From the sequence record PZ386974.1: a stretch of 64,000 bases of DNA, one strand, 5' to 3'. The position numbers were made by a program, and so were the translations under genes. Position 1 is the stretch's first letter. Each line of letters starts with the position of its first letter. Positions 1,867-61,304 of the stretch are shown here, piece after piece. The stretch is from a phage. The notes under the pieces were generated by a model. That model was not told the origin of the DNA and ran no database searches. It saw only the letters and a program-made list of their open reading frames with translations.

Positions 1867-3849
1867 ATGACACTTCTCTCTCCGGGCGTTGAGCTCAAAG
1901 AAACTACCGTACAGAGTACTGTAGTTAATAACTCCACTGGTACTGCTGCCCTGGCTGGAAAATTCCAATGGGGACCTGCATTCCAGATTAAACAAATCAC
2001 TGATGAAGTTGCATTGGTTGATATGTTTGGTACTCCTAATACGGATACAGCAGATTATTTCATGTCTGCTATGAACTTCCTTCAATATGGTAATGACCTT
2101 CGTGTTGTACGCGCAGTTGACCGTGATACTGCTAAGAACTCATCTCCTGTAGCAGGCAATATTGAATTCACAATCTCTGCTGCTGGTAGTAACTATGCAG
2201 TTGGTGATAAAATTATCGTTAAGTATTTGACCGAAACTGTTGAAGCAGATGGTTATGTCACTTCAGTTGATGTCGATGGTAAAATTCTTAACATTTATAT
2301 CCCAACCGGTAAAATTATTGCTCGTGCAAAAGAAATTAATGAATATCCGGCATTGGGTTCTAACTGGACCGCCGAAGTTGCCAGTTCTTCTTCTGGTCTC
2401 TCTGGCGTTATTACAATTGGTTCTATCGTAACCGATTCGGGTATTCTGTTAACTGAAGTTGAAACTTCTGAAGAAGCTATTACTTCTCTAACTTTCCAAG
2501 AATCTATTAAAAAATATGGTGTCCCAGGCGTAGTTGCTCTTTATCCTGGTGAACTTGGCGACCAGCTCGAAATTGAAATCGTATCTAAAGCAGACTATGA
2601 CAAAGGTGCTTCAGCCCAGTTAAAAATTTATCCTGATGGTGGTACTCGTGCATCTACTGCTAAAGCAATCTTTGGGTATGGCCCACAAACTGATGACCAA
2701 TATGCAATTATCGTTCGTCGTAACGATGCTGTAGTTCAGAGCGTAGTTCTTTCTACTAAACGTGGTGAACGCGATATTTATGGTAGTAATATCTTTATTG
2801 ATGATTTCTTTGCTAAAGGCGCAAGCAATTATATTTTCGCTACTGCACAAGGTTGGCCAAAAGGTTTCTCTGGCGTAATCAAACTGGGTGGTGGCTTATC
2901 ATCTAATGAAACGGTTGACGCTGGTGATTTAATGGAAGCTTGGGATTTGTTTGCTGACCGTGAATCTGTTAATGCGCAGTTGTTTATTGCCGGTTCTTGT
3001 GCAGGTGAATCTTTAGAAGTTGCTTCTACAGTTCAGAAACATGTTGTAGCAATTGGTGATTCTCGCCAAGATTGCTTGGTTCTTTGCTCACCACCACGTG
3101 CAACTATAGTCGGTATTCCTGTTAATCGTGCAGTTGATAATCTGGTTGATTGGCGTACTGCAACAGGAACTTACACCGATAATAACTTTAATGTAAGTTC
3201 TACTTATGCTGCTATTGACGGTAACTATAAATATCAATATGACAAATATAATGATGTGAATCGTTGGGTTCCATTAGCCGCTGATATCGCTGGTCTTTGT
3301 GCTCGTACAGACAATATTTCTCAGCCTTGGATGTCTCCTGCCGGTTATAACCGTGGACAAATTCTTAACGTTATTAAGCTTGCAATTGAAACTCGCCAAG
3401 CGCAGCGTGATCGTTTGTATCAGGAAGCTATTAACCCTGTCACTGGTACCGGTGGTGATGGGTATGTTCTGTACGGTGATAAAACTGCCACTTCTGTTCC
3501 TTCACCATTTGACCGTATTAACGTTCGTCGTTTGTTCAATATGGTTAAAACGAACATTGGTTCAGCATCTAAATATCGCCTGTTTGAATTGAACAACGCA
3601 TTTACCCGTTCTTCTTTCCGTACAGAGACTTCTCAATATCTACAGGGTATTAAAGCTCTCGGTGGTGTATATAACTTTAAAGTTGTTTGTGATACTACCA
3701 ATAACACCCCAGCAGTTATCGACCGTAATGAATTTGTAGCTACTTTCTACTTACAACCTGCCCGCTCGATAAATTATATTACGTTGAACTTTGTAGCAAC
3801 AGCAACTGGTGCCGATTTCGACGAACTAATTGGTGCTGTAGGTGGTTAA
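1867..3849 (+). CDS. 18: tail sheath protein gp18
   Basis: 660-aa ORF; N-terminus MTLLSPGVELKETTVQ and length match T4 gp18. Confidence 0.95.
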   Translation: MTLLSPGVELKETTVQSTVVNNSTGTAALAGKFQWGPAFQIKQITDEVALVDMFGTPNTDTADYFMSAMNFLQYGNDLRVVRAVDRDTAKNSSPVAGNIEFTISAAGSNYAVGDKIIVKYLTETVEADGYVTSVDVDGKILNIYIPTGKIIARAKEINEYPALGSNWTAEVASSSSGLSGVITIGSIVTDSGILLTEVETSEEAITSLTFQESIKKYGVPGVVALYPGELGDQLEIEIVSKADYDKGASAQLKIYPDGGTRASTAKAIFGYGPQTDDQYAIIVRRNDAVVQSVVLSTKRGERDIYGSNIFIDDFFAKGASNYIFATAQGWPKGFSGVIKLGGGLSSNETVDAGDLMEAWDLFADRESVNAQLFIAGSCAGESLEVASTVQKHVVAIGDSRQDCLVLCSPPRATIVGIPVNRAVDNLVDWRTATGTYTDNNFNVSSTYAAIDGNYKYQYDKYNDVNRWVPLAADIAGLCARTDNISQPWMSPAGYNRGQILNVIKLAIETRQAQRDRLYQEAINPVTGTGGDGYVLYGDKTATSVPSPFDRINVRRLFNMVKTNIGSASKYRLFELNNAFTRSSFRTETSQYLQGIKALGGVYNFKVVCDTTNNTPAVIDRNEFVATFYLQPARSINYITLNFVATATGADFDELIGAVGG

Positions 3850-9895: not shown

Positions 9896-10165
9896 TTATT
9901 TCTGTGCAATTTCGATGTAAGTTTTCAAAATATTTTGCCAATTAGGCATACCTTCTTGGTCATATGCCGGAGAACCGTCTTTGTTTTTGAATGATGCAAG
10001 TTTATCGGTGGCCCAATAACCTTTAGCTCGAGCTTCAGAATCAACTTTCATCCATACTTTGTTGAAGGCATTACCATTAACTTTTGCACCATATTTTTCT
10101 ACTAACTTAACTGCTTCAGCTTCCAGAACTTTTAAAGTATCTCGTAAGAAACGTGCTTTAGTCAT
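9896..10165 (-). CDS. hypothetical protein (antisense small gene between 23 and 24)
   Basis: 89-aa ORF with GAGGAG RBS and upstream early-type promoter; sits where I recall T4 carrying segD (uncertain). Confidence 0.55.
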   Translation of the reverse strand: MTKARFLRDTLKVLEAEAVKLVEKYGAKVNGNAFNKVWMKVDSEARAKGYWATDKLASFKNKDGSPAYDQEGMPNWQNILKTYIEIAQK

Positions 10166-12584: not shown

Positions 12585-12703
12585 AAATCACCATTATAAA
12601 TAATAATATCAAAATAATTAGCAGAGACTCTGTCTCCGACCGGATGTTTAATTTGAATGGATAGAACCTAGATTCATTATACCATCAAAAAATGTAAAGC
12701 ATA

Positions 12704-13245: not shown

Positions 13246-14664
13246 TTATGGATATGTATAGATGATACCAGTTTCCAAAGCAGTTTTATGGATGATGTAT
13301 CCATTACGTGATTCTTGAACATCAACTTCTGGATAGTCTTTCATCATCTTCTGAAGCGTATAACGATGCAAGTAATACTTACTATCTGGATCTTCAGTTT
13401 TCCAATCTTTACCTTCTTCAGTCATTTTTTGGATTTCATCCATAACCCACCAACCGCACCAGATGTAAGCTGAAGTACGATGTGGAAGAGGATGAACATA
13501 AGGTAATTCACCTTCTGGTTCTGGAGCAACTTTATCGGTTACCTGAACTTGACCTTCTGCTGTAATAGTTTTGCTATCATAATCAGTAGCAGTAACAGAT
13601 GCAGTAACTTCAATAGTTTGACTTCCAATAGATGAGGTATCAACGGTATATACATTAGTTGACCCTTCTACAGGAGAAGAATCTTTCTTCCATGAATACT
13701 CAATTTGCGCTTCTTCTGGAGCATCAGTGACATTAGCGGTAAATGTAGCCGAAGCATCTTGCTGAACGTTAATAGAAGGAGGAGTCAATGTAACCCGTGG
13801 ATTCATTGTCTTCTTATTAACCGTTAATGATACTTCATTCGAAGTAACTTCCTTTGCATCATAATCTGTCGCGGTTACTTGGGCTACACATTTAATTCTT
13901 TTTACTCCACTTGTAGTCGGAGTATAGCTAAATGTAGAGTTAGTTTCTCCACCAACCTGTGAATCATCTACATACCACTGATACGTAGCAGACGCTCCAA
14001 CCGGTTGAGAAGCTAAGGCAGCAGTAAATTGAACTGGGGTTCCAATTACTCCGGCTGAAGGACTATTGGGAGTTACTGCCAACGTAGTTGTCTGTGTCTT
14101 TTTATTAACAGTCAGTGACACTTCATTAGAAGTAACTTCCTTTGCATCATAATCTGTTGCGGTTACTTGAGCCACACACTTAATTCTTTTTACCCCGCTT
14201 TCGGCAGGAGTGTAATTGAACGTAACGTTAGTTGCTTCGCCAACAGGAGAATCGTCTACATACCATTGATAAGTAGCGTTTGCGCCTGATGGCTGCGAAG
14301 CTAAAGCGGCGGTAAATTCAATAGCTGTTCCTATTACTCCAGCGTCAGGGCTATTGGGAGTTACTGCTAAGGTAGTCGTTTGTGTCTTGTTTTGAACTGT
14401 GATAGTTGTAGAAGCTTCTGCTGTTTCAGCTTCAGCTTCTGGAACTGTATTTGTTGCAACTACTTTAATAGTCTTTTGACCGGCAGGTCCTTTTAGTACA
14501 TAACTAAAAGTTGCTTCAGCTCCATCTTGTGGAACATCATCCACAGACCAAGCATATGTAATAGTTCCGCCCCCAGTTTCACCACTGGGTGTAGCATTAA
14601 ACTGCTTAGTCTCATCTATAACTCCAGTAGGTGTTTTAGGAGTTATATCAACTGTAAAAGCCAT
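13246..14664 (-). CDS. hoc: highly immunogenic outer capsid protein Hoc, with extra Ig-like domain
   Basis: 472-aa ORF; N- and C-termini match T4 Hoc (376 aa); contains two tandem ~96-aa Ig-like repeats where T4 has one. Confidence 0.9.
   Translation of the reverse strand: MAFTVDITPKTPTGVIDETKQFNATPSGETGGGTITYAWSVDDVPQDGAEATFSYVLKGPAGQKTIKVVATNTVPEAEAETAEASTTITVQNKTQTTTLAVTPNSPDAGVIGTAIEFTAALASQPSGANATYQWYVDDSPVGEATNVTFNYTPAESGVKRIKCVAQVTATDYDAKEVTSNEVSLTVNKKTQTTTLAVTPNSPSAGVIGTPVQFTAALASQPVGASATYQWYVDDSQVGGETNSTFSYTPTTSGVKRIKCVAQVTATDYDAKEVTSNEVSLTVNKKTMNPRVTLTPPSINVQQDASATFTANVTDAPEEAQIEYSWKKDSSPVEGSTNVYTVDTSSIGSQTIEVTASVTATDYDSKTITAEGQVQVTDKVAPEPEGELPYVHPLPHRTSAYIWCGWWVMDEIQKMTEEGKDWKTEDPDSKYYLHRYTLQKMMKDYPEVDVQESRNGYIIHKTALETGIIYTYP
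13813..14388 (-). repeat. tandem duplication of 288-bp Ig-like domain unit inside hoc
   Basis: two adjacent 96-codon units (14101-14388 and 13813-14100), clearly similar at nt level (identity not computed), encoding KTQTTTLAVTPNSP...SLTVNK. Confidence 0.8.
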
Positions 14665-14673
14665 AAGTTATCC

Positions 14674-15342
14674 TTATTTTAATGTTACGAAAGAAGAATT
14701 ACGAGTTTCACGAATTAGAACTGATCCATCGCGATTAATATAATAAATTAAGCTAAATAATGTTTGGTGAGCAGAAGCATGCACAAAACTAGTTGGACGA
14801 GATTTCCAATCTGGGGTTTCGGCTATCCATTGATAAATCCACCAAGGAACAGTAACATATCCTGGGCCTTTGCCTAATTTAATGAGTGTAGGACTAAAAT
14901 TTTCAGGCAGAACAAATTTTACTTCTTTATTTACCTCTGGCTCAGGCTCTTTTTCAGATTCAACAACCTGAGTAATTGCTTCTTCGAATTTATCATGGTC
15001 GAATTCTTTTTCTTGTTCGACAACTTCTAATACTTCAACTTGTTCTGTTGGAGAATCAAACAACAGAATAGCTTCTTCTTTAACTTCTTCGTTGGTGAAA
15101 TTAACACCGTCCACATCATCTGCGGCAGTAATTAAATCAGTGATAGATAATCCATCAGTTTCAGGTAATGGTTCATCAGCCAGTGCGTTAAGAGCTTCTT
15201 CGATATCAATAACAATATTATCGAATGATTTTGATTTCTTAACACTAATGCCGAATTGTTCCGCATATTCAAACAGTTTAGCTTTGGCTTCCTTTTTATC
15301 AGAAAGAGCACGTAACTCTTCAATATAGTCTTTATCGATCAT
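14674..15342 (-). CDS. inh: inhibitor of prohead protease (Inh)
   Basis: 222-aa acidic ORF directly downstream of hoc, T4 synteny. Confidence 0.8.
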   Translation of the reverse strand: MIDKDYIEELRALSDKKEAKAKLFEYAEQFGISVKKSKSFDNIVIDIEEALNALADEPLPETDGLSITDLITAADDVDGVNFTNEEVKEEAILLFDSPTEQVEVLEVVEQEKEFDHDKFEEAITQVVESEKEPEPEVNKEVKFVLPENFSPTLIKLGKGPGYVTVPWWIYQWIAETPDWKSRPTSFVHASAHQTLFSLIYYINRDGSVLIRETRNSSFVTLK

Positions 15343-15355
15343 GATATTTCCTCAT

Positions 15356-15363
15356 TATAAATA
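15356..15363 (+). promoter_or_regulatory. TATAAATA late-promoter motif upstream of segE
   Basis: exact TATAAATA 17 nt upstream of the MEKSMYHF ATG. Confidence 0.4.
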
Positions 15364-15379
15364 TAACTATATTTATTAC

Positions 15380-16123
15380 ATGGAAAAGAGTATGTATCAC
15401 TTTGTTTATGAGACCGTAAATTTAATCAATGGTAAAAAGTACATTGGCAAACATTCTACAGAAAATTTAAATGATTCGTATCTAGGGTCAGGTGTTGCCT
15501 TAAATCGCGCTATCAAAAAATACGGAGAAGAATCATTTAAACGTTCAATAATTAAACAATTTGAAACTTCCGCTGAAGCTTTAGAATACGAAGCTCAGTT
15601 AGTAACAGAGGATTTGGTCAAATCTAACGAGTATTATAATATGCGCCAAGGCGGTGAAGGTGGAAGGTATAAGTACACCGAAGCTGATAAGACTAAAATG
15701 TCTAATAGTGCTAAAGAACGAATAAAGAGGCTTGGTCATAATCTTTTAGGAAAACACAGATCGGAAGAAACAAAAAGAAAACTATCTGAAACAAATAAAC
15801 GTCGATACTCTGAAGACCCAACATGCCACGGGCGGTATGGTACAGGAAAGCCAAAGATTGATAAAATTAAAGGTCCTAAAAATCCTACAACTCTAAATAA
15901 AATTTGTGTTAACAACGGTAAAGAAAACAGATTTATATCAGCCGAGGACCCGATGCCTGAAGGATTTGTAAAAGGAATGGTCCAACTTAATAGAAAATCT
16001 AGAAAGGGTTGTGAAGTAAAACCTACGACCACCGGCAGAATATGGGTAAATAACGGGGCTATAAATAAATTAGTAAATCCGTTATCCATCCCAGATGGAT
16101 ATGTTAAAGGCCGTTTAAGGTAA
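15380..16123 (+). CDS. segE: GIY-YIG homing endonuclease SegE-like
   Basis: GIY-YIG module (YHFVYETVNLINGKKYIGKHS); same inh-uvsW location as T4 segE; start placed at ATG 15380 not the ORF-track ATG 15341. Confidence 0.8.
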   Translation: MEKSMYHFVYETVNLINGKKYIGKHSTENLNDSYLGSGVALNRAIKKYGEESFKRSIIKQFETSAEALEYEAQLVTEDLVKSNEYYNMRQGGEGGRYKYTEADKTKMSNSAKERIKRLGHNLLGKHRSEETKRKLSETNKRRYSEDPTCHGRYGTGKPKIDKIKGPKNPTTLNKICVNNGKENRFISAEDPMPEGFVKGMVQLNRKSRKGCEVKPTTTGRIWVNNGAINKLVNPLSIPDGYVKGRLR

Positions 16124-16128
16124 TTATT

Positions 16129-17643
16129 ATGACAGATATTAAAGTACATTTTCATGATTTTAGCCATGTAAGAATTGAATGCGACGAAAGCGTGTTCTAT
16201 GAATTACGCGACTTTTTTAGCTTTGAAGCCGATGGGTACAAATTCAACCCGCGTTACAAATATGGGAACTGGGATGGTAGAATTCGACTTTTAGATTACA
16301 ATCGTTTGTTACCATATGGACTTGTAGGACAAATAAAAAAGTTCTGTAACAATATGAGTTATTCTGTATGGATTGACCCTAAAATCTTTGAGACTGAAGA
16401 CCTTACCAGGGAAGATTTTGACGCATGGCTTTCTAAACAAGAAATTTATTCTGGCAACGCCAAAATTGAACCACATTGGTATCAAAAAGATGCAGTATAT
16501 GAAGGACTAGTTAATCGTCGTCGAATTTTAAACCTTCCGACATCAGCAGGTAAATCACTAATCCAAGCACTTTTAGCTCGGTATTATCTAGAGAACTATG
16601 AAGGTAAAATTCTCATTATCGTCCCTACAACGGCATTGACAACTCAGATGGCTAATGATTTTGTTGATTATCGCTTGTTTAGTCATTCGATGATTAAGAA
16701 AATTGGCGGTGGTGCTGATAAAGCGGACAAATCTAAAAACGACGCTCCAATTATTGTTGGCACATGGCAAACGGTAGTTAAGCAGCCTAAAGAATGGTTC
16801 TCTCAGTTCGGTATGATGATGAACGACGAATGCCACTTAGCAACAGGCAAAAGTATTTCTTCAATCATCTCAGGATTAAATAATTGCATGTTTAAATTCG
16901 GTTTATCCGGCTCATTAAGAGACGGAAAAGCCAATGTAATGCAGTATGTAGGCATGTTCGGCGAAATCTTCCGTCCTGTTAGCACGTCTAAATTAATGGA
17001 AGATGGACAGGTAACTGAGCTTAAGATTAATAGTATTTTCCTTCGTTATCCGGACGAATTCACCGTTAAATTAAAAGGTAAAACATACCAAGAAGAAGTT
17101 AAAATTATTACCGGACTAAAACGTCGTACAAAGTGGATTGCTCAACTTTCGGTCAAATTGGCTAAGAAAGACGAGAACGCCTTTGTAATGTTTAAACACG
17201 TTACACACGGTAAAGAAATATTTGAAGCTATTAAAGAGCTTGGATACGAAAAAGTTTATTACGTATCAGGTGAAGTTGATACTGAAACACGTAACGCGCT
17301 TAAAGTCATGGCAGAAAATGGTAAAGGCATTATTATTGTCGCATCATATGGAGTATTCTCTACTGGTATTTCAGTCAAGAATCTTCATCATGTTATTTTC
17401 GCCCATGGTGTTAAATCAAAAATTATCGTACTTCAAACAGTAGGTCGTGTGCTTCGTAAGCATGGTTCTAAAGCTGTTGCTACAGTTTGGGATCTCATCG
17501 ATGACGCAGGTGTAAAACCTAAATCATTAAATACTAAAAAGAAGTATACTCATCTTAATTACTTGTTAAAACACGGTATTGATCGTATCCAGCGTTACGC
17601 TGATGAGAAATTTAACTATGTAATGAAAACAATTAATTTATAA
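16129..17643 (+). CDS. uvsW: UvsW DNA/RNA-DNA helicase
   Basis: 504-aa ORF; SF2 helicase motifs (PTSAGKS Walker A, DECH box). Confidence 0.93.
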   Translation: MTDIKVHFHDFSHVRIECDESVFYELRDFFSFEADGYKFNPRYKYGNWDGRIRLLDYNRLLPYGLVGQIKKFCNNMSYSVWIDPKIFETEDLTREDFDAWLSKQEIYSGNAKIEPHWYQKDAVYEGLVNRRRILNLPTSAGKSLIQALLARYYLENYEGKILIIVPTTALTTQMANDFVDYRLFSHSMIKKIGGGADKADKSKNDAPIIVGTWQTVVKQPKEWFSQFGMMMNDECHLATGKSISSIISGLNNCMFKFGLSGSLRDGKANVMQYVGMFGEIFRPVSTSKLMEDGQVTELKINSIFLRYPDEFTVKLKGKTYQEEVKIITGLKRRTKWIAQLSVKLAKKDENAFVMFKHVTHGKEIFEAIKELGYEKVYYVSGEVDTETRNALKVMAENGKGIIIVASYGVFSTGISVKNLHHVIFAHGVKSKIIVLQTVGRVLRKHGSKAVATVWDLIDDAGVKPKSLNTKKKYTHLNYLLKHGIDRIQRYADEKFNYVMKTINL

Positions 17644-17668
17644 GGGCTTCGGCCCTTAGGAGATAAAA

Positions 17669-17899
17669 ATGGTACTTGAATTTAAACAATTTTTATACGA
17701 AGCATCTATTGACGAATTCATGGGTAAAATTGCTAGTTGTCATACCTTAGAAGGGCTTGAAGAATTGGAAGCTTATTATAAGAAACGTATAAAAGAAACG
17801 GAATTAAAAGATACAGATGATATTTCTGTCAGGGATGCCTTAGCAGGTAAGCGTGCCGAACTTGAAGGCGATGATGAGGATGTGGAAGAAGACTTCTAA
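17669..17899 (+). CDS. uvsW.1: UvsW.1 small acidic protein
   Basis: 76-aa ORF downstream of uvsW with AGGAG RBS. Confidence 0.75.
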   Translation: MVLEFKQFLYEASIDEFMGKIASCHTLEGLEELEAYYKKRIKETELKDTDDISVRDALAGKRAELEGDDEDVEEDF

Positions 17900-17959
17900 T
17901 TAAAAAAAGGCCCGACCTTTTTGGAAGGGCCAAAAACCATAGGCAAAAAAGGTAACACT

Positions 17960-18127
17960 ATAGTAAAAGTTGGGTTTCGTTCAATTGCTCTTCTGAACTT
18001 TCTGAAACCGGCAATTGTTGGACATAATTATAACAAGGACCAGGATGTGCTGGACCTTTGTCTGTTTCAACAACCAATGCAGAATCGATTGGAGTTTTAC
18101 AGACAACACAAATCTTATCTGACATGA
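17960..18127 (-). CDS. small Cys-containing protein (uvsY.-2-like), below ORF-track size cutoff
   Basis: 55-aa ORF MSDKICVVCKTPIDS...PGPCYNY with GGAGG RBS 7 nt upstream; hand-translated. Confidence 0.5.
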
Positions 18128-18157
18128 TTGCCTCCTAAGTTGAAATTACATATCTAT

Positions 18158-18382
18158 TTATACCACTCGCATGCACATATCGATACCCATATCTTTTGTA
18201 TAAAAATACTCGTCGATGTACCCAGCAAACTTCCCTTTAATATAAAGGACGTCTTCGCCACAAGGATGGTCTGCCAGGATACGAATATCCTGACGACGTA
18301 GACGATACTTTTCCATTAAGAATTTAATTTCAGTTTCAAATTCTTCATCATTATTAAAGGCATCTTCAATTGAATAACGCAT
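18158..18382 (-). CDS. hypothetical protein (uvsY.-1-like)
   Basis: 74-aa ORF downstream of uvsY, stop/start overlap. Confidence 0.6.
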   Translation of the reverse strand: MRYSIEDAFNNDEEFETEIKFLMEKYRLRRQDIRILADHPCGEDVLYIKGKFAGYIDEYFYTKDMGIDMCMRVV

Positions 18383-19918: not shown

Positions 19919-19930
19919 TATTTATAAATA
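19919..19930. promoter_or_regulatory. palindromic bidirectional late promoter TATTTATAAATA between genes 26 and 51
   Basis: 12-bp palindrome gives TATAAATA on both strands, correctly spaced upstream of gene 51 (+) and gene 26 (-). Confidence 0.5.
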
Positions 19931-32407: not shown

Positions 32408-33022
32408 CTACTTAATGAAATTAATTTCTACCGGATGAACAACAGGTTGAGCAGTGATATATTGAGTAATTGCTTTCATGACTAGAGCTTCAGAACCAGG
32501 ATTTTTCTCAACGAATTCACGTGCTTGGTTATGAGCTTCAAGTTCACTTAGTAAACCACTTCGTTGACATCCACGGTCTTGAGTACCCTGTTCAGATAAA
32601 AAGGCGACGATGTATTTTTCATCGTCATACGGTTTAGACGGTTGAGCAAATGTTCCTTTACTTCCAAAAGGAGAGTTATGACGCCACATCACGCCGTTAG
32701 GAGTTTCAACCTTCGTATATTCGTGTGGGCCATTTTTCTTAGTTTCTTGATGTGGAACTTCATGGACCTTAGGGTTAGGACATTCAATAAAATGCTCATC
32801 TAAATCAGTCGAGAATATTAAAGTAAAACAATTACTAAATTTACCAACACCTGCCTGATAAATTTTACCTTCAGACGTTCTAATTTCACAAACCGAGCCA
32901 GCATCAGTAACTTCTAAAACTTCAAAAGGCTCGATAAGGTCATATGAGAACATGTTTTTAAGGCGTGGAGTAATATCCCCATTTTTAAAATTCATTTTAT
33001 AAAAAGTATTAACTTTAAACAT
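32408..33022 (-). CDS. hypothetical protein (30.x, 204 aa)
   Basis: 204-aa ORF in T4-like codon usage. Confidence 0.6.
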   Translation of the reverse strand: MFKVNTFYKMNFKNGDITPRLKNMFSYDLIEPFEVLEVTDAGSVCEIRTSEGKIYQAGVGKFSNCFTLIFSTDLDEHFIECPNPKVHEVPHQETKKNGPHEYTKVETPNGVMWRHNSPFGSKGTFAQPSKPYDDEKYIVAFLSEQGTQDRGCQRSGLLSELEAHNQAREFVEKNPGSEALVMKAITQYITAQPVVHPVEINFIK

Positions 33023-42205: not shown

Positions 42206-42235
42206 ATTGTACCACAATCCTTGTGGTATGTAAAC
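42206..42235 (-). promoter_or_regulatory. T4 early-type promoter (GTTTACA-N17-TACAAT) for rnlA
   Basis: minus strand GTTTACA, 17 nt, TACAAT, then GAGGA RBS. Confidence 0.45.
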
Positions 42236-42645
42236 TACTTTTTCTTATGTTGGATATTCCAAGGCGGGTTGAACTTTTTGATAAAAAGTGGTTCTTCAAG
42301 GTCCATTGTTGCGATGGTCATTGAACCAAGTTCGTTGGTGACTGAAAGGTCAAAACATTGGCGGGCCCAGAATTCAACCTTTTTGCCTTGCATTAAGGCA
42401 TCCAAAATCATAAGTGATTTTCTTGAATCTGAAGTCTGGTCTTTTCGATTTATGGCTGTTCGATAATAGTTAATGCGTTTCTTTAAATTCTTGGTTTTAC
42501 CAATATACACAAGTTCGTCATCTATAGCAATAGCGTATATGACATTTTTCTTATTAGGGACATCAACTGTTTTAATTGTTGCATCTTCTAATAGCTCCAA
42601 TTCTGTATATTTAATAAAGGAATATTCGGCGGCAATATCTTTCAT
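42235..42645 (-). CDS. denA: endonuclease II (GIY-YIG family)
   Basis: 136 aa, same as T4 EndoII; VYIGKT motif. Confidence 0.9.
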   Translation of the reverse strand: MKDIAAEYSFIKYTELELLEDATIKTVDVPNKKNVIYAIAIDDELVYIGKTKNLKKRINYYRTAINRKDQTSDSRKSLMILDALMQGKKVEFWARQCFDLSVTNELGSMTIATMDLEEPLFIKKFNPPWNIQHKKK

Positions 42646-58049: not shown

Positions 58050-61000
58050 ATGGCTACATTAAAACAGATACAATTTAAAAGAAGCAAAGTAGCAGGAGTT
58101 AATCCTACTGCAGCACAATTAGCCGAAGGCGAATTAGCGATAAACTTAAAAGATCGAACTCTTTTTACTAAAGATGACCTCGGTAATATTATTAGCCTAG
58201 GCTTTGCTAAGGGTGGGGATATTAACGGTAATGTAACTCAAAATGGTGATTATTTACAAAACGGCACATTTAACCTCAATGGAAATCAGTTTGTTTATGC
58301 AGGAAAATACATTGAATTTTTACCTAAAACCACTGGAAATGGCGCTTGGGCTAACCAACATTCGAATAAAGCCCCTATCTTTACAGATTTGAGTTCAACT
58401 ACTTCTATTTCAGAATACCACCCTTTGATTAAACAACGCTATAAAGATGGAACTTTTTCTGCTGGTACATTAGTAAACGAAGGTAGTTTTAAATTCCATT
58501 ATATTGATGAAACCGGGACTTCAAAATACTGGACTTTTAATCGAAACGGTAATTTTCAAGTTGATTCTGGAAGTTTATTAGTATCTAATGGATATTTAGT
58601 TACTCAAAGTAATATTGAAACTAAAGCTGGTTCTTTAATTGGTCCTAAAGTTATTACCAAAAATATCAATGTGAGCACTAAATCTTGGGGCACTAATATT
58701 GATACTGCATATGATTTAGTTTCATTACCGACTTGGCACTATACTCCAACCGAAACAGATTTGGATACTAATGGTATAAACTACCTTCGTAAATTCCGCG
58801 GACATGTTTCTTCTGCTATTTTCCATGAAGTTGCTGATGCTCGTTCAGGTAAACCACAGAATATTTCGTATTGGACGGGACGTAATGCTGAAGTTTATCA
58901 ATGGTCTTATACCACAGATGGGCGTATGTCTGTTGCTAATTCGATAGGTATAGGTCTTGCTGATGTTGGTGACCAAGGACGTTATCCATTGGTTTCGTTT
59001 GGTAAAGGTATTGCAATTGGTGACAATGATACTGGTATTAAATGGGTTCGTGACGGGGTTATCGATTTAGTTGCGAATGGTATTTCTGCCGGCACTATTC
59101 TTAATAACGGCATTAACAGTACTAAAAAATTGATGGTTGGTTATAGTCGAGATTCTGGTTCTACTTGGGATTACCCAAATAACAACCAAGCAATGTTTAC
59201 TGCGCGTACCGATGTTGATGGTAATAATAACGGTGACGGTCAGACTCATATTGGTTATAGCAGCAATGCCAAGATGTATCACTATTTCCGTGGCACTGGT
59301 CGTATGTCCGTTAGTATGGGCGATGGACTTCTTGTTGAGCCTGGCATTTTAGATATTAAAACTGGTTCAAATTCGTTAAATTTGCGTGCTGATGGTACCA
59401 TCGCTTCCGTTCAAACGTTAAAACTTAATAATGGATTATATTTTAATGGCGATGGAACTAATGCTTCTCTAGTTTTTAAAGCAGCTTCAGGTATTGATGG
59501 CACTAAGCAAATCATGTGGGAAGGCGGTACTCGAGCAGGTCAGAATAAGAGTTATGTAACGGCTAAAGCATGGGGTAATTCATTTAATGCCACTGGTGAT
59601 AAATCTCGTGAAACTGTATTTGAAGTTAGTGACGGGCATGGATACCATTTTTATTCTCAACGTGTAGCTCCTGCGCCTGGTTCTACCGTCGGACCTATTC
59701 AATTTCGAGTTAATGGTGGTTTATTAACTTCAGGTAGTATTGTTACTTCTGGTTCTATTACAACTGAATCTTCTTTAAGTGTTAATAATGGCATGTCAGT
59801 AAATGGACAAGCTAAATTCGGTGGAACTGCTGATGCATTAAGAATTTGGAATGCTGAATACGGTGCTATTTTCCGTCGTTCAGAGGCGGCATTGCATATT
59901 ATTCCAACTCCTAAAGATGCAGGTGAATCTGGCGGAATAAGTAATCTTCGCCCATTAAGTATCAGCCTTAATAATGGTATGGTGCAAATGCGTCATTCTG
60001 TCACGTTAGGTGACGATGGTGCTGGCGGTAATATGATTACAGTGGACAATGATAACAAACTTGTTGTTGTTACTAGTAATAGTCGCATTTCTCCTAATTT
60101 CAGAATGCAGATAGGTCAGTCGGCATACATTGATGCAGAATGTACTGATAGAGCACGTCCGGCCGGAGCGGGTTCTTTTGCTTCCCAAAATAATGAAAAT
60201 GTACGTGCGCCGTTCTATATGAATATTGATAGAACTGATACTAGTACATATGTTCCTATTTTGAAACAACGATATGTTCAAGGAAATAGCTGTTATTCTT
60301 TAGGAACTCTAATTAATGGTGGTAACTTTAGAGTTCATTATCATGAAGGTGGTGATAATGATTCGACGGGCCCTTTAATTAAGGACTTCGGGTGGGAATT
60401 CAATAGAACCGGTGATTTTATTTCCCCTGGTAAATTAGGCGCTGGTACGGTTCGTATTGGTACTGACGGTAACATCACAGGTGGTTCTGGTAATTTTGCC
60501 AACTTAAATAGTACAATTGAATCACTTAAAACTGATATTGTCTCAAGTTATCCAATTGGTGCTCCGATTCCATGGCCTACTGATACACCTCCTGAAGGTT
60601 ATGCCATAATGGAAGGTCAAACATTTGATGCTGGCTTGTATCCTAAGTTAGCTGCGGTGTATCCTTCCGGCTCTCTGCCTGATATGCGTGGTCAAACTAT
60701 CAAGGGTAAACCATCTGGGCGTGCTGTATTGAGTACAGAAGCAGACGGTGTTAAGTCACATAGCCATAGTGCAAGTGCATCAAGCACAGATTTGGGTACT
60801 AAGACCACTTCTAGTTTTGATTACGGTAGCAAAACGACTTCAAGCTTTGATTATGGTACTAAGACCAGTAATACCACTGGCAACCATAACCATACAGTGA
60901 GTGGTAATACTAGTTCCGCAGGAGCTCACCACCACGCGCGTTCAGGTCCTCAGGTACAAGGCGGCATACCCACTAGCGTATTCTATGATGGATACAATAG

Positions 61001-61304
61001 TGCTGGTCCAAACGGCAACGCTAAATTCACTGCAACCGTGAGCGGTGCTACTGCATCGTCGAATATGGCCAAAACTTCTTCAGACGGTGCCCACACCCAT
61101 AGTTGGTCAGGAACTACTAGCTCTACGGGTAACCACGCGCATACTGTAGGTATCGGTGCCCATAGCCATTCGGTCGGTATTGGTGCTCATACCCACACGG
61201 TAGCTATTGGTTCGCACGGTCATACTATCACTGTAAATAGTACAGGAAATACAGAAAACACAGTTAAAAACGTTGCTTTTAACTATATCGTTCGTTTAGC
61301 ATAA
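58050..61304 (+). CDS. 37: long tail fibre distal subunit / receptor-binding protein gp37
   Basis: 1084 aa; C-terminal His-box (HxH) repeats and terminal ...NYIVRLA as in T4 gp37. Confidence 0.93.
60795..60854 (+). repeat. tandem 30-bp (10-codon) repeat [10 protein letters not shown] x2 in gp37 tip region
   Basis: two adjacent units with conserved peptide but many synonymous differences; T4 has a single copy by recall. Confidence 0.6.

Follow-up and report, generated by a model that had tools for sequence, protein, structure and literature searches.

A probable SegE-family homing endonuclease gene on a 737-bp cassette in the inh–uvsW spacer of a Mosigvirus genome

We analyzed a window of 64,000 nt (the whole stretch studied from phage record PZ386974.1, one strand, 5′ to 3′) and found that a segE-like open reading frame (ORF) is very likely a free-standing GIY-YIG homing endonuclease gene (HEG) that belongs to the T4 SegE family and lies on a 737-bp cassette in the inh–uvsW spacer of a Mosigvirus. 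The window genome is that of an RB69/JS09-like T-even coliphage of this genus. The ORF is a real gene, and the candidate element is probably still mobile. It is of an ordinary kind that has been annotated before, namely the known T4 SegE type; an NCBI ‘GIY-YIG nuclease family protein’ has the same sequence as the encoded 243-aa protein (100% identity), which also matches PHROG 314 ‘homing endonuclease’ (5.9e-43). The locus is laid out as follows:

14674..15342, minus strand: inh (hoc.1), prohead protease inhibitor; an ORF annotated as inh in relatives
15384..16120, plus strand: insertion cassette, 737 bp, missing from HEG-less relatives
15392..16123, plus strand: segE-like coding sequence, 243 aa plus stop codon
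16129..17643, plus strand: uvsW helicase gene, right neighbor and presumed target, from the ORF and the annotation of relatives

The left neighbor, inh, is transcribed away from the element. As expected of a SegE-family gene, the segE-like ORF lies in the inh(hoc.1)–uvsW spacer and is co-oriented with uvsW. The initial annotation of this DNA had proposed a GIY-YIG ORF between inh and uvsW, placed as T4 segE is, and this was borne out by ORF calls, Pfam, and the T4 position (PMC2988022, Table 1). Both Pfam SegE_GIY-YIG (PF19835; 29.7 bits, cut-off 25) and Pfam GIY-YIG (PF01541; 25.8 bits, cut-off 22.6) match above threshold. A direct phmmer search of the 243-aa protein against PDB sequences gave nothing meaningful; a family profile was required, and it matches I-TevI (1LN0) with E = 0.003. 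The AlphaFold model has pLDDT values of 91–98 across the N-terminal domain, and the best Foldseek matches are 1MK0 and 1LN0 (probability 1.00), placing the predicted fold nearest to the I-TevI catalytic domain. The protein can be divided into three regions:

15392..15676, plus strand: GIY-YIG catalytic domain, aa 1–95 (PF19835, PF01541, family profile, AlphaFold, Foldseek)
15680..15805, plus strand: two NUMOD3-like helices, aa 97–114 and 125–138 (sub-threshold NUMOD3 match, model)
15899..16120, plus strand: C-terminal putative DNA-binding region, aa 170–243 (alignments, model)

None of the residues Y6, Y17, E67, and N83 varies across a family alignment of 47 sequences, and their I-TevI counterparts are Y6, Y17, E75, and N90. 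The GIY-YIG catalytic residues, whose absence on alignment would have spoken against the initial assignment, are therefore present. Arg27, which is essential in I-TevI, falls within a segment that is inserted when I-TevI is compared with the SegE-family profile and has no alignable counterpart; no Arg is invariant in the SegE family, and K20, H21, and K43 are conserved instead. This gap is weak evidence against activity because the whole SegE family shares it, including T4 SegE, which is an active enzyme. The NUMOD3 match falls below threshold (17.1 bits vs a cut-off of 20.4), and the second NUMOD3-like helix together with the disordered linker that follows it forms a 51-aa stretch absent from T4 SegE in the pairwise alignment. 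Residues 170–243 contain two ‘xNNGxxN...PxGFxKG’ β-hairpin modules, with model strands at 170–183 and 217–228, and are the part most conserved with T4 SegE. By analogy with modular GIY-YIG homing enzymes, they are predicted to bind DNA.

The best-supported start codon is ATG 15392, which lies 12 nt 3′ of the start assumed initially. We favor it because the T4 SegE N-terminus, MYHFVYET, is identical to that of the protein started at 15392 and because T4 has no ATG at the equivalent of 15380. The HEG-carrying records NBG1, p000y, KAW3E185, and KMB38 are annotated with this start, and the LF82-41 annotation gives a 732-nt gene, equal in length to the 15392 version; the JM17 annotation differs, with a start at 15380. 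A start at 15380 was rejected, as it is not found in T4 and would have a leader of ~10 nt without a Shine–Dalgarno sequence. The ORF called by a mechanical rule spans 15341..16123 on the plus strand (260 aa), and its start at 15341 was also rejected; LF82-41 reads CATA there and the ATG is missing. The Shine–Dalgarno sequence of ATG 15392 is weak (GGA, 7–9 nt upstream).

We compared the inh–uvsW junction across relatives, as the initial annotation had suggested, and found the gene present in some and absent from others, with a precise block distinguishing the two. HEG-less genomes read TTATTACATGG joined directly to TAATTTGACATGACT, and carriers read TTATTACATGG, then the cassette, then TAATTATTATGACA; a shared GG leaves the exact cassette boundaries ambiguous. 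Of 668 phage records with matching flanks, only 11 carry the gene, and the rest are without exactly 736–737 bp (megablast record spans of 1065 nt vs 1801 nt). Because this block is precisely missing in non-carriers, the gene is an insertion that is either present or absent, not part of the core, and the possibility that the gene is universal among relatives, which would have counted against the initial proposal, did not hold. The empty site is identical to the base in 6 Mosigviruses and almost the same in T2. A mobile HEG would be expected to vary between presence and absence in this way among close relatives, with precise boundaries. Our detailed comparison was confined to 13 Mosigvirus loci, 7 carriers and 6 non-carriers.

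Three matches to the T4-type late-promoter motif bear on how this locus is expressed:

15356..15363, plus strand: exact T4-type late-promoter motif TATAAATA, read as the native uvsW late promoter; predicted transcript start ~15369
15370..15377, minus strand: AATAAATA, a 7-of-8 late-motif match 35 nt before the inh ATG (direct reading)
16060..16067, plus strand: second exact TATAAATA, at codons A-I-N-K in the 3′ end of the endonuclease gene

The upstream TATAAATA begins 36 nt before ATG 15392, within the spacing typical of late promoters (~25–40 nt); for other late genes in the window, the motif-to-start distance is mostly 25–38 nt. An identical copy is found in 6 HEG-less Mosigviruses, where it lies 37 nt before the uvsW ATG, and the motif is also found in T2 and T4. 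Its presence in HEG-less relatives and T2 indicates that it is the native uvsW late promoter, captured by the insertion; judged from sequence comparison, a pre-existing promoter would now serve the endonuclease gene. In T4, a late promoter directs UvsW expression (PMC3016281, citing Derr and Kreuzer 1990). The initial annotation had credited the gene with a late-promoter motif, placing an exact TATAAATA 17 nt upstream of the likely start and inside the inh/segE overlap. The motif is indeed present, with its last base 17 nt before ATG 15380, but the likely start is 15392 instead, and the motif is shared by HEG-less relatives and so is not the element's own. The location in the overlap was mistaken: the mechanical ORF and inh overlap by just 2 nt (CATG, 15340–15343), and with the start at 15392, TATAAATA falls within a 49-nt intergenic spacer. 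For annotation, the value of these results is that the start codon is fixed at 15392 and that the late promoter belongs to uvsW, not to the element.

The second exact TATAAATA, which had been missed initially, lies 61 nt before the uvsW ATG (69 nt from motif start to ATG). It occurs in 7/7 carriers, and an independent allele of 187 aa on a metagenome contig (L017) has it at the homologous codons; the T4 equivalent is AATAAATA, a 7-of-8 match. This internal motif is a candidate embedded late promoter that may restore uvsW expression, a role made uncertain by its 69-nt spacing, which exceeds the usual 25–38 nt, and by the 7-of-8 match of the T4 copy. The T4 segE promoter has been placed in the noncoding region upstream of the gene, and segE itself contains promoter(s) for the gene downstream (PMC2988022). 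On the minus strand, conservation of the sequence at 15370..15377 extends to T4, T2, and every Mosigvirus locus compared, and this sequence is a candidate for a divergent late promoter of inh; a late promoter ahead of inh has been mentioned (PMC2988022). A sigma-70 scan of 14600–18200 found fewer promoter-like sites than in shuffles, and a terminator scan of the same region found none between the endonuclease gene and uvsW. RBS-sequestering hairpins at the endonuclease gene and uvsW were unsupported by fold z-scores of −0.05, −1.07, and −0.76. Such RNA hairpins sequester the RBS of I-TevI and segB.

It is quite unlikely that both TATAAATA motifs arose by chance in AT-rich DNA and are uninformative on expression. 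About 7 copies would be expected by chance in the window, and conserved codons (A/I-I-N-K) coincide with the internal copy, so that the protein sequence could explain most of the internal motif. The motif is nonetheless enriched, with 20 copies in the window vs 7.1 ± 2.7 in shuffles (0/100 shuffles reach 20), the majority shortly before late genes. T4, T2, and every Mosigvirus locus compared retain the upstream copy at a standard distance to the first ATG, and a late promoter is documented for uvsW (PMC3016281). For the internal copy, only ~0.04 exact matches are expected in 737 nt on one strand.

Pairwise diversity is 0.0036 in the cassette vs 0.017–0.022 in the flanks, a 5–6 times lower value. 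All 7 carriers examined retain an intact ORF of 243 aa; 7 sites vary, with only 2 amino-acid polymorphisms among them. Carriers are not mutually nearest by flank sequence, and the nearest neighbor of the window is the HEG-less phage Mizar. The low diversity and differing flank backgrounds fit recent horizontal spread over old vertical inheritance; the low cassette diversity could owe partly to purifying selection. These same features, the intact ORF, and the retention of all family-invariant residues argue against a decaying or retired endonuclease, a relic that neither cuts nor homes, is inherited vertically, and is kept for a promoter that uvsW now needs. We assign this explanation a low probability, although the I-TevI Arg27 counterpart is not identifiable, the RBS of the endonuclease gene is weak, there is an internal TATAAATA at 16060–67, and embedded promoters have been argued to favor retention of endonuclease genes (PMC2988022).

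Very improbable, finally, is a gene ancestral to Mosigvirus and repeatedly lost, in which case the polymorphism would reflect deletions and not homing insertion: several SegE alleles do occupy one site in several Tevenvirinae lineages, making an old association with the site plausible, but ~90% or more of closely matching records are without the gene, cassette diversity is very low, uvsW is normally promoter-spaced at the empty site, and independent deletions are unlikely because they would not repeatedly recreate the same exact site, base-identical in the 6 Mosigviruses and nearly so in T2.

A homing insertion that is probably still mobile is also consistent with the right flank, where differences linked to the element, another pattern expected of a mobile HEG, define one further feature:

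16121..16209, plus strand: element-linked tract, comprising an 8-nt spacer and uvsW codons 1–27 (fixed differences)

Between the 7 carriers and 6 non-carriers, 21/21 right-flank fixed differences lie in the first 90 nt beyond the right end of the insertion. The left flank has 1 fixed difference in 720 nt, and there is no element-linked haplotype at inh. Between-group divergence reaches 0.227 over the first 95 nt on the right vs ~0.02 elsewhere. The tract contains 16 coding differences, of which 13 are synonymous and 3 are non-synonymous, giving H9Y and V22T. The asymmetry of fixed differences between right and left matches a target within uvsW, and we consider 16121..16209 a putative co-conversion tract and immune target site. 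By analogy, the cleavable version would be the sequence of HEG-less relatives; the predicted target is thus the uvsW 5′ end of these relatives, equivalent to window positions 16121–16209. Alternatively, the linked part of uvsW could be ancestral sequence that hitch-hiked, not the product of selection for immunity. [quoted passage not shown]

All steps of the mechanism we propose rest on analogy with T4 SegE. The cassette would have been placed between the divergent late promoters of the inh–uvsW spacer and the uvsW start codon. Late in infection, as the anatomy and the comparison with relatives suggest, transcription would begin at the pre-existing uvsW late promoter (TATAAATA, 15356–63); since the endonuclease ATG at 15392 occupies the former place of the uvsW ATG, the late transcript would make the 243-aa enzyme. 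In mixed infection, the behavior of T4 SegE and the position of the linked tract suggest that the enzyme would cut the HEG-less genome at or near the uvsW 5′ end. Recombination repair from the carrier would then copy the cassette together with ~90 nt of the donor uvsW 5′ end, a process that would leave the footprint observed here. The carrier uvsW 5′ end, with 21 differences that are mostly synonymous, would escape cutting. Having been displaced by 737 bp, uvsW would be expressed by read-through and maybe also from the second TATAAATA in the last 70 nt of the endonuclease gene. The locus would then be a clean example of a selfish gene wedged between a host promoter and its gene and bringing a replacement promoter. 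The practical value of the finding is small.

The initial annotation had called this the only such gene in the window. It is the sole homing endonuclease gene but not the sole GIY-YIG-fold nuclease, as denA also has this fold:

42235..42645, minus strand: denA, GIY-YIG-fold nuclease, not a homing gene (Pfam GIY-YIG 28.1 bits, above threshold)

Nothing beyond 15392–16120 emerged from a Pfam scan of all hypothetical ORFs in the window for hidden homing genes or from tblastn of T4 SegD and SegE against the window, and colinearity with LF82-41 revealed no further homing-gene insertion. Rfam at gathering thresholds gave 0 matches in the window, which therefore contains no group I intron. The other T4 homing sites had been described as empty, and we likewise found no homing endonuclease at 23/24, 32/59, td, or nrdB. 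Gaps of 41 nt and 118 nt separate nrdB/nrdA and 32/59, respectively, and td and nrdB are uninterrupted. The 23/24 gap is occupied by an unrelated 89-aa ORF (9896–10165, minus strand; PHROG 6003, function unknown). Because of its position, which is that of T4 segD, this ORF was considered as a SegD remnant and rejected for want of similarity (BLASTP E = 0.22).

The closest known system is T4 SegE (205 aa). Both it and the 243-aa protein belong to PF19835, and BLASTP aligns them along their full length with 49% identity over 243 columns (E = 3e-77), with one 51-aa gap and the highest conservation in the C-terminal 70 aa. T4 segE has the same insertion site, orientation, and upstream TATAAATA as the Mosigvirus gene, and the uvsW 5′ end is diverged between T4 and T2 just as it is between carriers and HEG-less relatives. 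The Mosigvirus allele differs in having 51 additional residues (the second NUMOD3-like helix and linker) and in lacking the 12-aa C-terminal tail of the T4 protein. At its right junction, the stop codon lies 5 nt before uvsW and uvsW codon 2 is kept, whereas T4 has a 2-nt gap and a uvsW without Thr2. The internal motif is an exact TATAAATA in the Mosigvirus allele and AATAAATA in T4. The Mosigvirus allele is rare (11 records), whereas the T4-type allele occurs in 159/588 matching records. We know the Mosigvirus allele here from sequence, and its mechanism is likened to that of an enzyme with which it shares only 49% identity.

The three diverged SegE alleles that we compared (T4-type, Mosigvirus, and 187-aa metagenomic) have one common site and are linked to partly shared synonymous states at uvsW codons 3, 9, 13, 21, and 23. 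When HEG-linked states are compared between the T4 and Mosigvirus alleles, 7 of 16 agree, 3 are opposed, and 6 carry no information, making this sharing suggestive only. It is possible, but on balance unlikely, that the first ~90 nt of uvsW move with the SegE cassette as one unit across T-even genera. If the alleles recognize one shared conserved target, SegE homing could cross genera. UvsW is the switch from origin-dependent to recombination-dependent replication, and, if the proposal is true, SegE could rewire its timing via promoter capture and the embedded promoter, and the extra NUMOD3 linker might alter the distance from binding site to cut.

Among other phage homing enzymes, T4 SegD has 46% identity to the 243-aa protein over the first 90 aa. 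SegA–D, F, G, and related phage HEGs share its GIY-YIG N-terminal domain, NUMOD3 linker, and modular C-terminal DNA-binding organization. SegA–D, F, and G are free-standing and intergenic, as is the segE-like gene, but they have unrelated C-terminal halves, insertion sites, and targets (PMC2988022, Table 1). I-TevI has the same catalytic fold, and its Tyr, Tyr, Glu, and Asn align with those of the 243-aa protein. It differs in being encoded in the T4 td intron, in having the Arg27 α-helix that is absent from the SegE family, and in its zinc-finger and helix-turn-helix DNA-binding region. Expression of I-TevI is driven by a late promoter (PMC2988022), and an RBS-sequestering hairpin of the I-TevI type was undetected at the Mosigvirus locus (z-scores −0.05 to −1.07). 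RB69, the classic phage of the genus, was reported to lack introns, and none of its listed ORFs is a T4-like mob or seg gene (PMC1524935). The T4 segE site is used in Mosigvirus too, by a diverged allele.

The segE-like ORF appears in the ORF listing of the window as a plus-strand frame at 15341..16123 (260 aa) with the following neighbors:

14674..15342, minus strand: inh, the left neighbor, an ORF annotated in relatives as inhibitor of prohead protease
16129..17643, plus strand: uvsW, the right neighbor, a 504-aa ORF annotated in relatives as UvsW helicase

Megablast of 14600-16400 placed the window in Mosigvirus (RB69/JS09-like T-even coliphages), with JM17, NBG1, NicPhage, p000y, KAW3E185, and LF82-41 as the best matches (99% identity). 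In matching records, the ORF is labeled "homing endonuclease," "group I intron endonuclease," or "hypothetical protein."

Three in-frame ATGs could open this ORF, at 15341, 15380, and 15392. We rejected 15341, an ATG inside a CATG common with the inh start on the opposite strand, where LF82-41 has CATA, and also 15380, where T4 and RB5 lack an ATG and read CTCGG. Translation from 15392 begins MYHFVYET, the same N-terminus as T4 SegE. Among the annotations read, four records carrying the gene (NBG1, p000y, KAW3E185, and KMB38) start at 15392, and the 732-nt gene annotated in LF82-41 matches this version in length; JM17 is annotated from 15380. Because of the shared N-terminus, the relatives' annotations, and the absence of the two upstream starts in LF82-41 or T4, we take the gene to be 15392-16123, encoding 243 aa. 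In relatives without the gene (3782-3796 of one such locus, L002, and equivalents), the ATG matching 15380 opens a three-codon mini-ORF, ATG GTA ATT TGA, that stops 1 nt ahead of the uvsW start codon. Carriers have this ATG (window 15380-15391) in the reading frame of the endonuclease gene, to which it would add MEKS. The mini-ORF may serve in translational coupling of uvsW, or it may be meaningless.

Family, fold, and position identify the predicted protein as the product of a free-standing homing endonuclease gene of the SegE family, located at the canonical T4 inh/uvsW site, in agreement with the initial annotation. Pfam scores were 29.7 bits for SegE_GIY-YIG (PF19835; cut-off 25) and 25.8 bits for GIY-YIG (PF01541; cut-off 22.6), with a NUMOD3 match below threshold, and the PHROGs match was "homing endonuclease" (5.9e-43). 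BLASTP aligned T4-type SegE (205 aa, from RB5) end to end at 49% identity (E = 3e-77); a single 51-residue gap lies in the linker, which is longer here. A large protein collection held 826 homologues at E <= 1e-5, including an identical (100%) protein named "GIY-YIG nuclease family protein" by NCBI.

The GIY-YIG catalytic residues are present. Invariant positions in a 47-sequence alignment are Y6, Y17, G19, Y30, G32, G34, K43, F49, E67, N83, G87, and G88. The family profile built from this alignment found the I-TevI catalytic domain (1LN0, E = 0.003), aligning I-TevI Y6, Y17, E75, and N90 with Y6, Y17, E67, and N83 here. I-TevI Arg27 has no alignable counterpart in this protein or anywhere in the SegE family; since the experimentally active T4 enzyme shares this feature, it is no argument for inactivity. 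An AlphaFold model (mean pLDDT 81.6; 91-98 over residues 1-90) had 1MK0 and 1LN0 as its best PDB fold matches (probability 1.00, TM-score 0.65 on target). The modeled domain order is a GIY-YIG domain, NUMOD3-like helices at 97-114 and 125-138, a disordered linker, and two β-hairpin modules of the form xNNGxxN...PxGFxKG, which are the parts best conserved with T4 SegE.

The possibility that this is a universal core gene in relatives did not hold up, as the gene was covered by only 11 of the 668 phage records matching its flanks by megablast. The remaining records aligned as two pieces lying 736 bp nearer each other, and tblastn returned exactly 11 records with a protein at least 99% identical. 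Comparison of seven carriers with six non-carriers resolved one precise junction, from the empty site TTATTACATGG|TAATTTGACATGACT to the filled site TTATTACATGG[15384-16120]TAATTATTATGACA. T2, of a different genus, has an almost identical empty site. By these alignments, the gene is an insertion and not a core gene. In Tequatrovirus, the T4-type allele is likewise polymorphic for presence or absence, being carried by 159 of 588 matching records, and a third allele (P0003, 187 aa) adjoins inh on a metagenomic contig.

We also examined the late-promoter motif TATAAATA, which occurs 20 times in the window against 7.1 ± 2.7 in shuffles, none of which reached 20; most copies start 25-38 nt upstream of the ATG of late genes. 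An exact copy lies at 15356-63, as initially annotated, although not inside an inh/segE overlap: the two genes are separated by a 49-nt spacer. This copy is identical base for base in Mosigviruses lacking the gene, is found in T2 and T4 too, and lies 37 nt from the uvsW ATG in non-carriers versus 36 nt from that of the endonuclease gene in carriers. A late promoter is known to drive UvsW synthesis (PMC3016281, citing Derr and Kreuzer 1990). Because the motif stands at like spacing in genomes without the gene and uvsW is late-promoter-driven, we assign it as the native uvsW promoter, outside the mobile cassette and captured by the insertion; the endonuclease gene would be expressed from it. In T4, the segE promoter is described as sitting in non-coding DNA ahead of the gene (PMC2988022). 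A 7-of-8 match on the minus strand, AATAAATA at 15377-15370, lies 35 nt ahead of the inh ATG and may be a divergent inh late promoter. Entry of the cassette 6 nt past it would leave both promoters intact.

The final 70 nt of the endonuclease gene contain another exact TATAAATA (16060-67), which is 61 nt upstream of the uvsW ATG; shuffle counts give an expectation of about 0.04 for 737 nt of one strand. This internal copy is present in all carriers and at homologous codons of the metagenomic allele, whereas the T4 gene has AATAAATA there. It is a candidate embedded uvsW promoter, which fits the report of promoters for the downstream gene embedded in segE (PMC2988022). Elsewhere in the window, two exact copies overlap on opposite strands at 19919-19930 (TATTTATAAATA), forming a tight back-to-back pair of late promoters where the divergent genes 26 (-) and 51 (+) are 47 nt apart, and another (12595-12602, +) lies between the minus-strand genes rnlB and 24.2, antisense to both.

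The segE-like gene is, as initially claimed, the only homing nuclease in the window, although not the only one of GIY-YIG fold. LF82-41 is colinear with the entire 64 kb, from gene 17 to past asiA; relative to it the window has no insertion, and across the span LF82-41 has a single "homing endonuclease" annotation, the counterpart of the segE-like gene. The sizeable differences are confined to a 288-nt hoc length change and a diverged tail-fiber tip. In the window, hoc (13246-14664, -; 472 aa) has two near-identical tandem 96-aa Ig-like repeats. It encodes 472 aa in Mizar, 376 aa in most close relatives (NBG1, LF82-41, JS09), and about 280 aa in JQD51 (843 nt), which looks like copy-number variation of a capsid-decoration Ig domain; T2 has two short "hypothetical" ORFs at this position (L006 479-1335) and no intact hoc. 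Distal gene 37 (long tail fiber; 58238-61134) has 75% or no match to LF82-41, against 90-98% identity elsewhere, and is the usual host-range hypervariable region. Pfam scans of all hypothetical ORFs found no HNH, LAGLIDADG, GIY-YIG, or NUMOD domain, except in denA (42235..42645, -; GIY-YIG at 28.1 bits, threshold 22.6). This gene encodes endonuclease II, which degrades host DNA, and is not a homing gene. A 204-aa ORF in the gene 30.x cluster (32408-33022, -) matched solely PHROG 17531, of unknown function, with no Pfam family at E <= 0.1. By the T4 gene order, six homing genes fall in the interval that the window spans. In the window, the nrdB/nrdA (41 nt) and 32/59 (118 nt) gaps are empty, td (286 aa) and nrdB are uninterrupted, Rfam found no intron, and tblastn of T4 SegD and SegE matched solely at 15392-16120. 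An 89-aa antisense ORF of unknown function (9896-10165, -; PHROG 6003) occupies the 23/24 gap, the T4 segD position, and was rejected as a SegD relative, being unrelated to SegD. The six T4 genes are segD, segE, I-TevIII, mobE, I-TevI, and segG (Table 1, PMC2988022).

Finally, we compared haplotypes of the seven carriers and six non-carriers. The left flank (720 nt) has one fixed difference, distant from the junction, versus 21 on the right, all within the first 90 nt past the cassette (16121-16209; an 8-nt spacer and uvsW codons 1-27). Divergence between the groups is 0.227 in this tract versus about 0.02 in the remaining uvsW and beyond. Thirteen of the 16 coding differences are synonymous, and the amino acid changes are H9Y and V22T. 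Most carriers have His at codon 9 (16153-16155), the most variable amino acid position within the putative target tract; the carrier LF82-41 has Arg there, and T2 and all non-carriers have Tyr. Among carriers, the ORF is intact in 7/7 and the cassette nearly uniform (mean pairwise difference 0.0036; seven variable sites; two amino acid polymorphisms). Diversity in their flanks matches that of the entire sample (0.017-0.022), and their nearest flank neighbors are often non-carriers; that of the window is phage Mizar. This pattern would be expected after recent spread by homing with a short co-conversion tract, and the element is probably still mobile or was so very recently.

The flank asymmetry puts the putative target toward uvsW, in line with T4 SegE, which is reported to insert at inh/uvsW and to target uvsW (Table 1, PMC2988022). 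At 7 of the 16 Mosigvirus differences, T4 has the carrier state and T2 the non-carrier state, with three reversed; the metagenomic allele (L017) has five of the seven T4-concordant carrier states. These shared states, not significant alone, hint at common immunity positions or a common origin of the tract. Our literature search found no specific description of this allele. The family is well studied; this member of it is diverged (49% identity, longer linker), and identical copies are already deposited and annotated. Crosses of T4 with RB30 gave almost 100% homing with co-conversion (PMC2330249), and T4 and T2 differ by the same kind of tract at the 5' end of uvsW.
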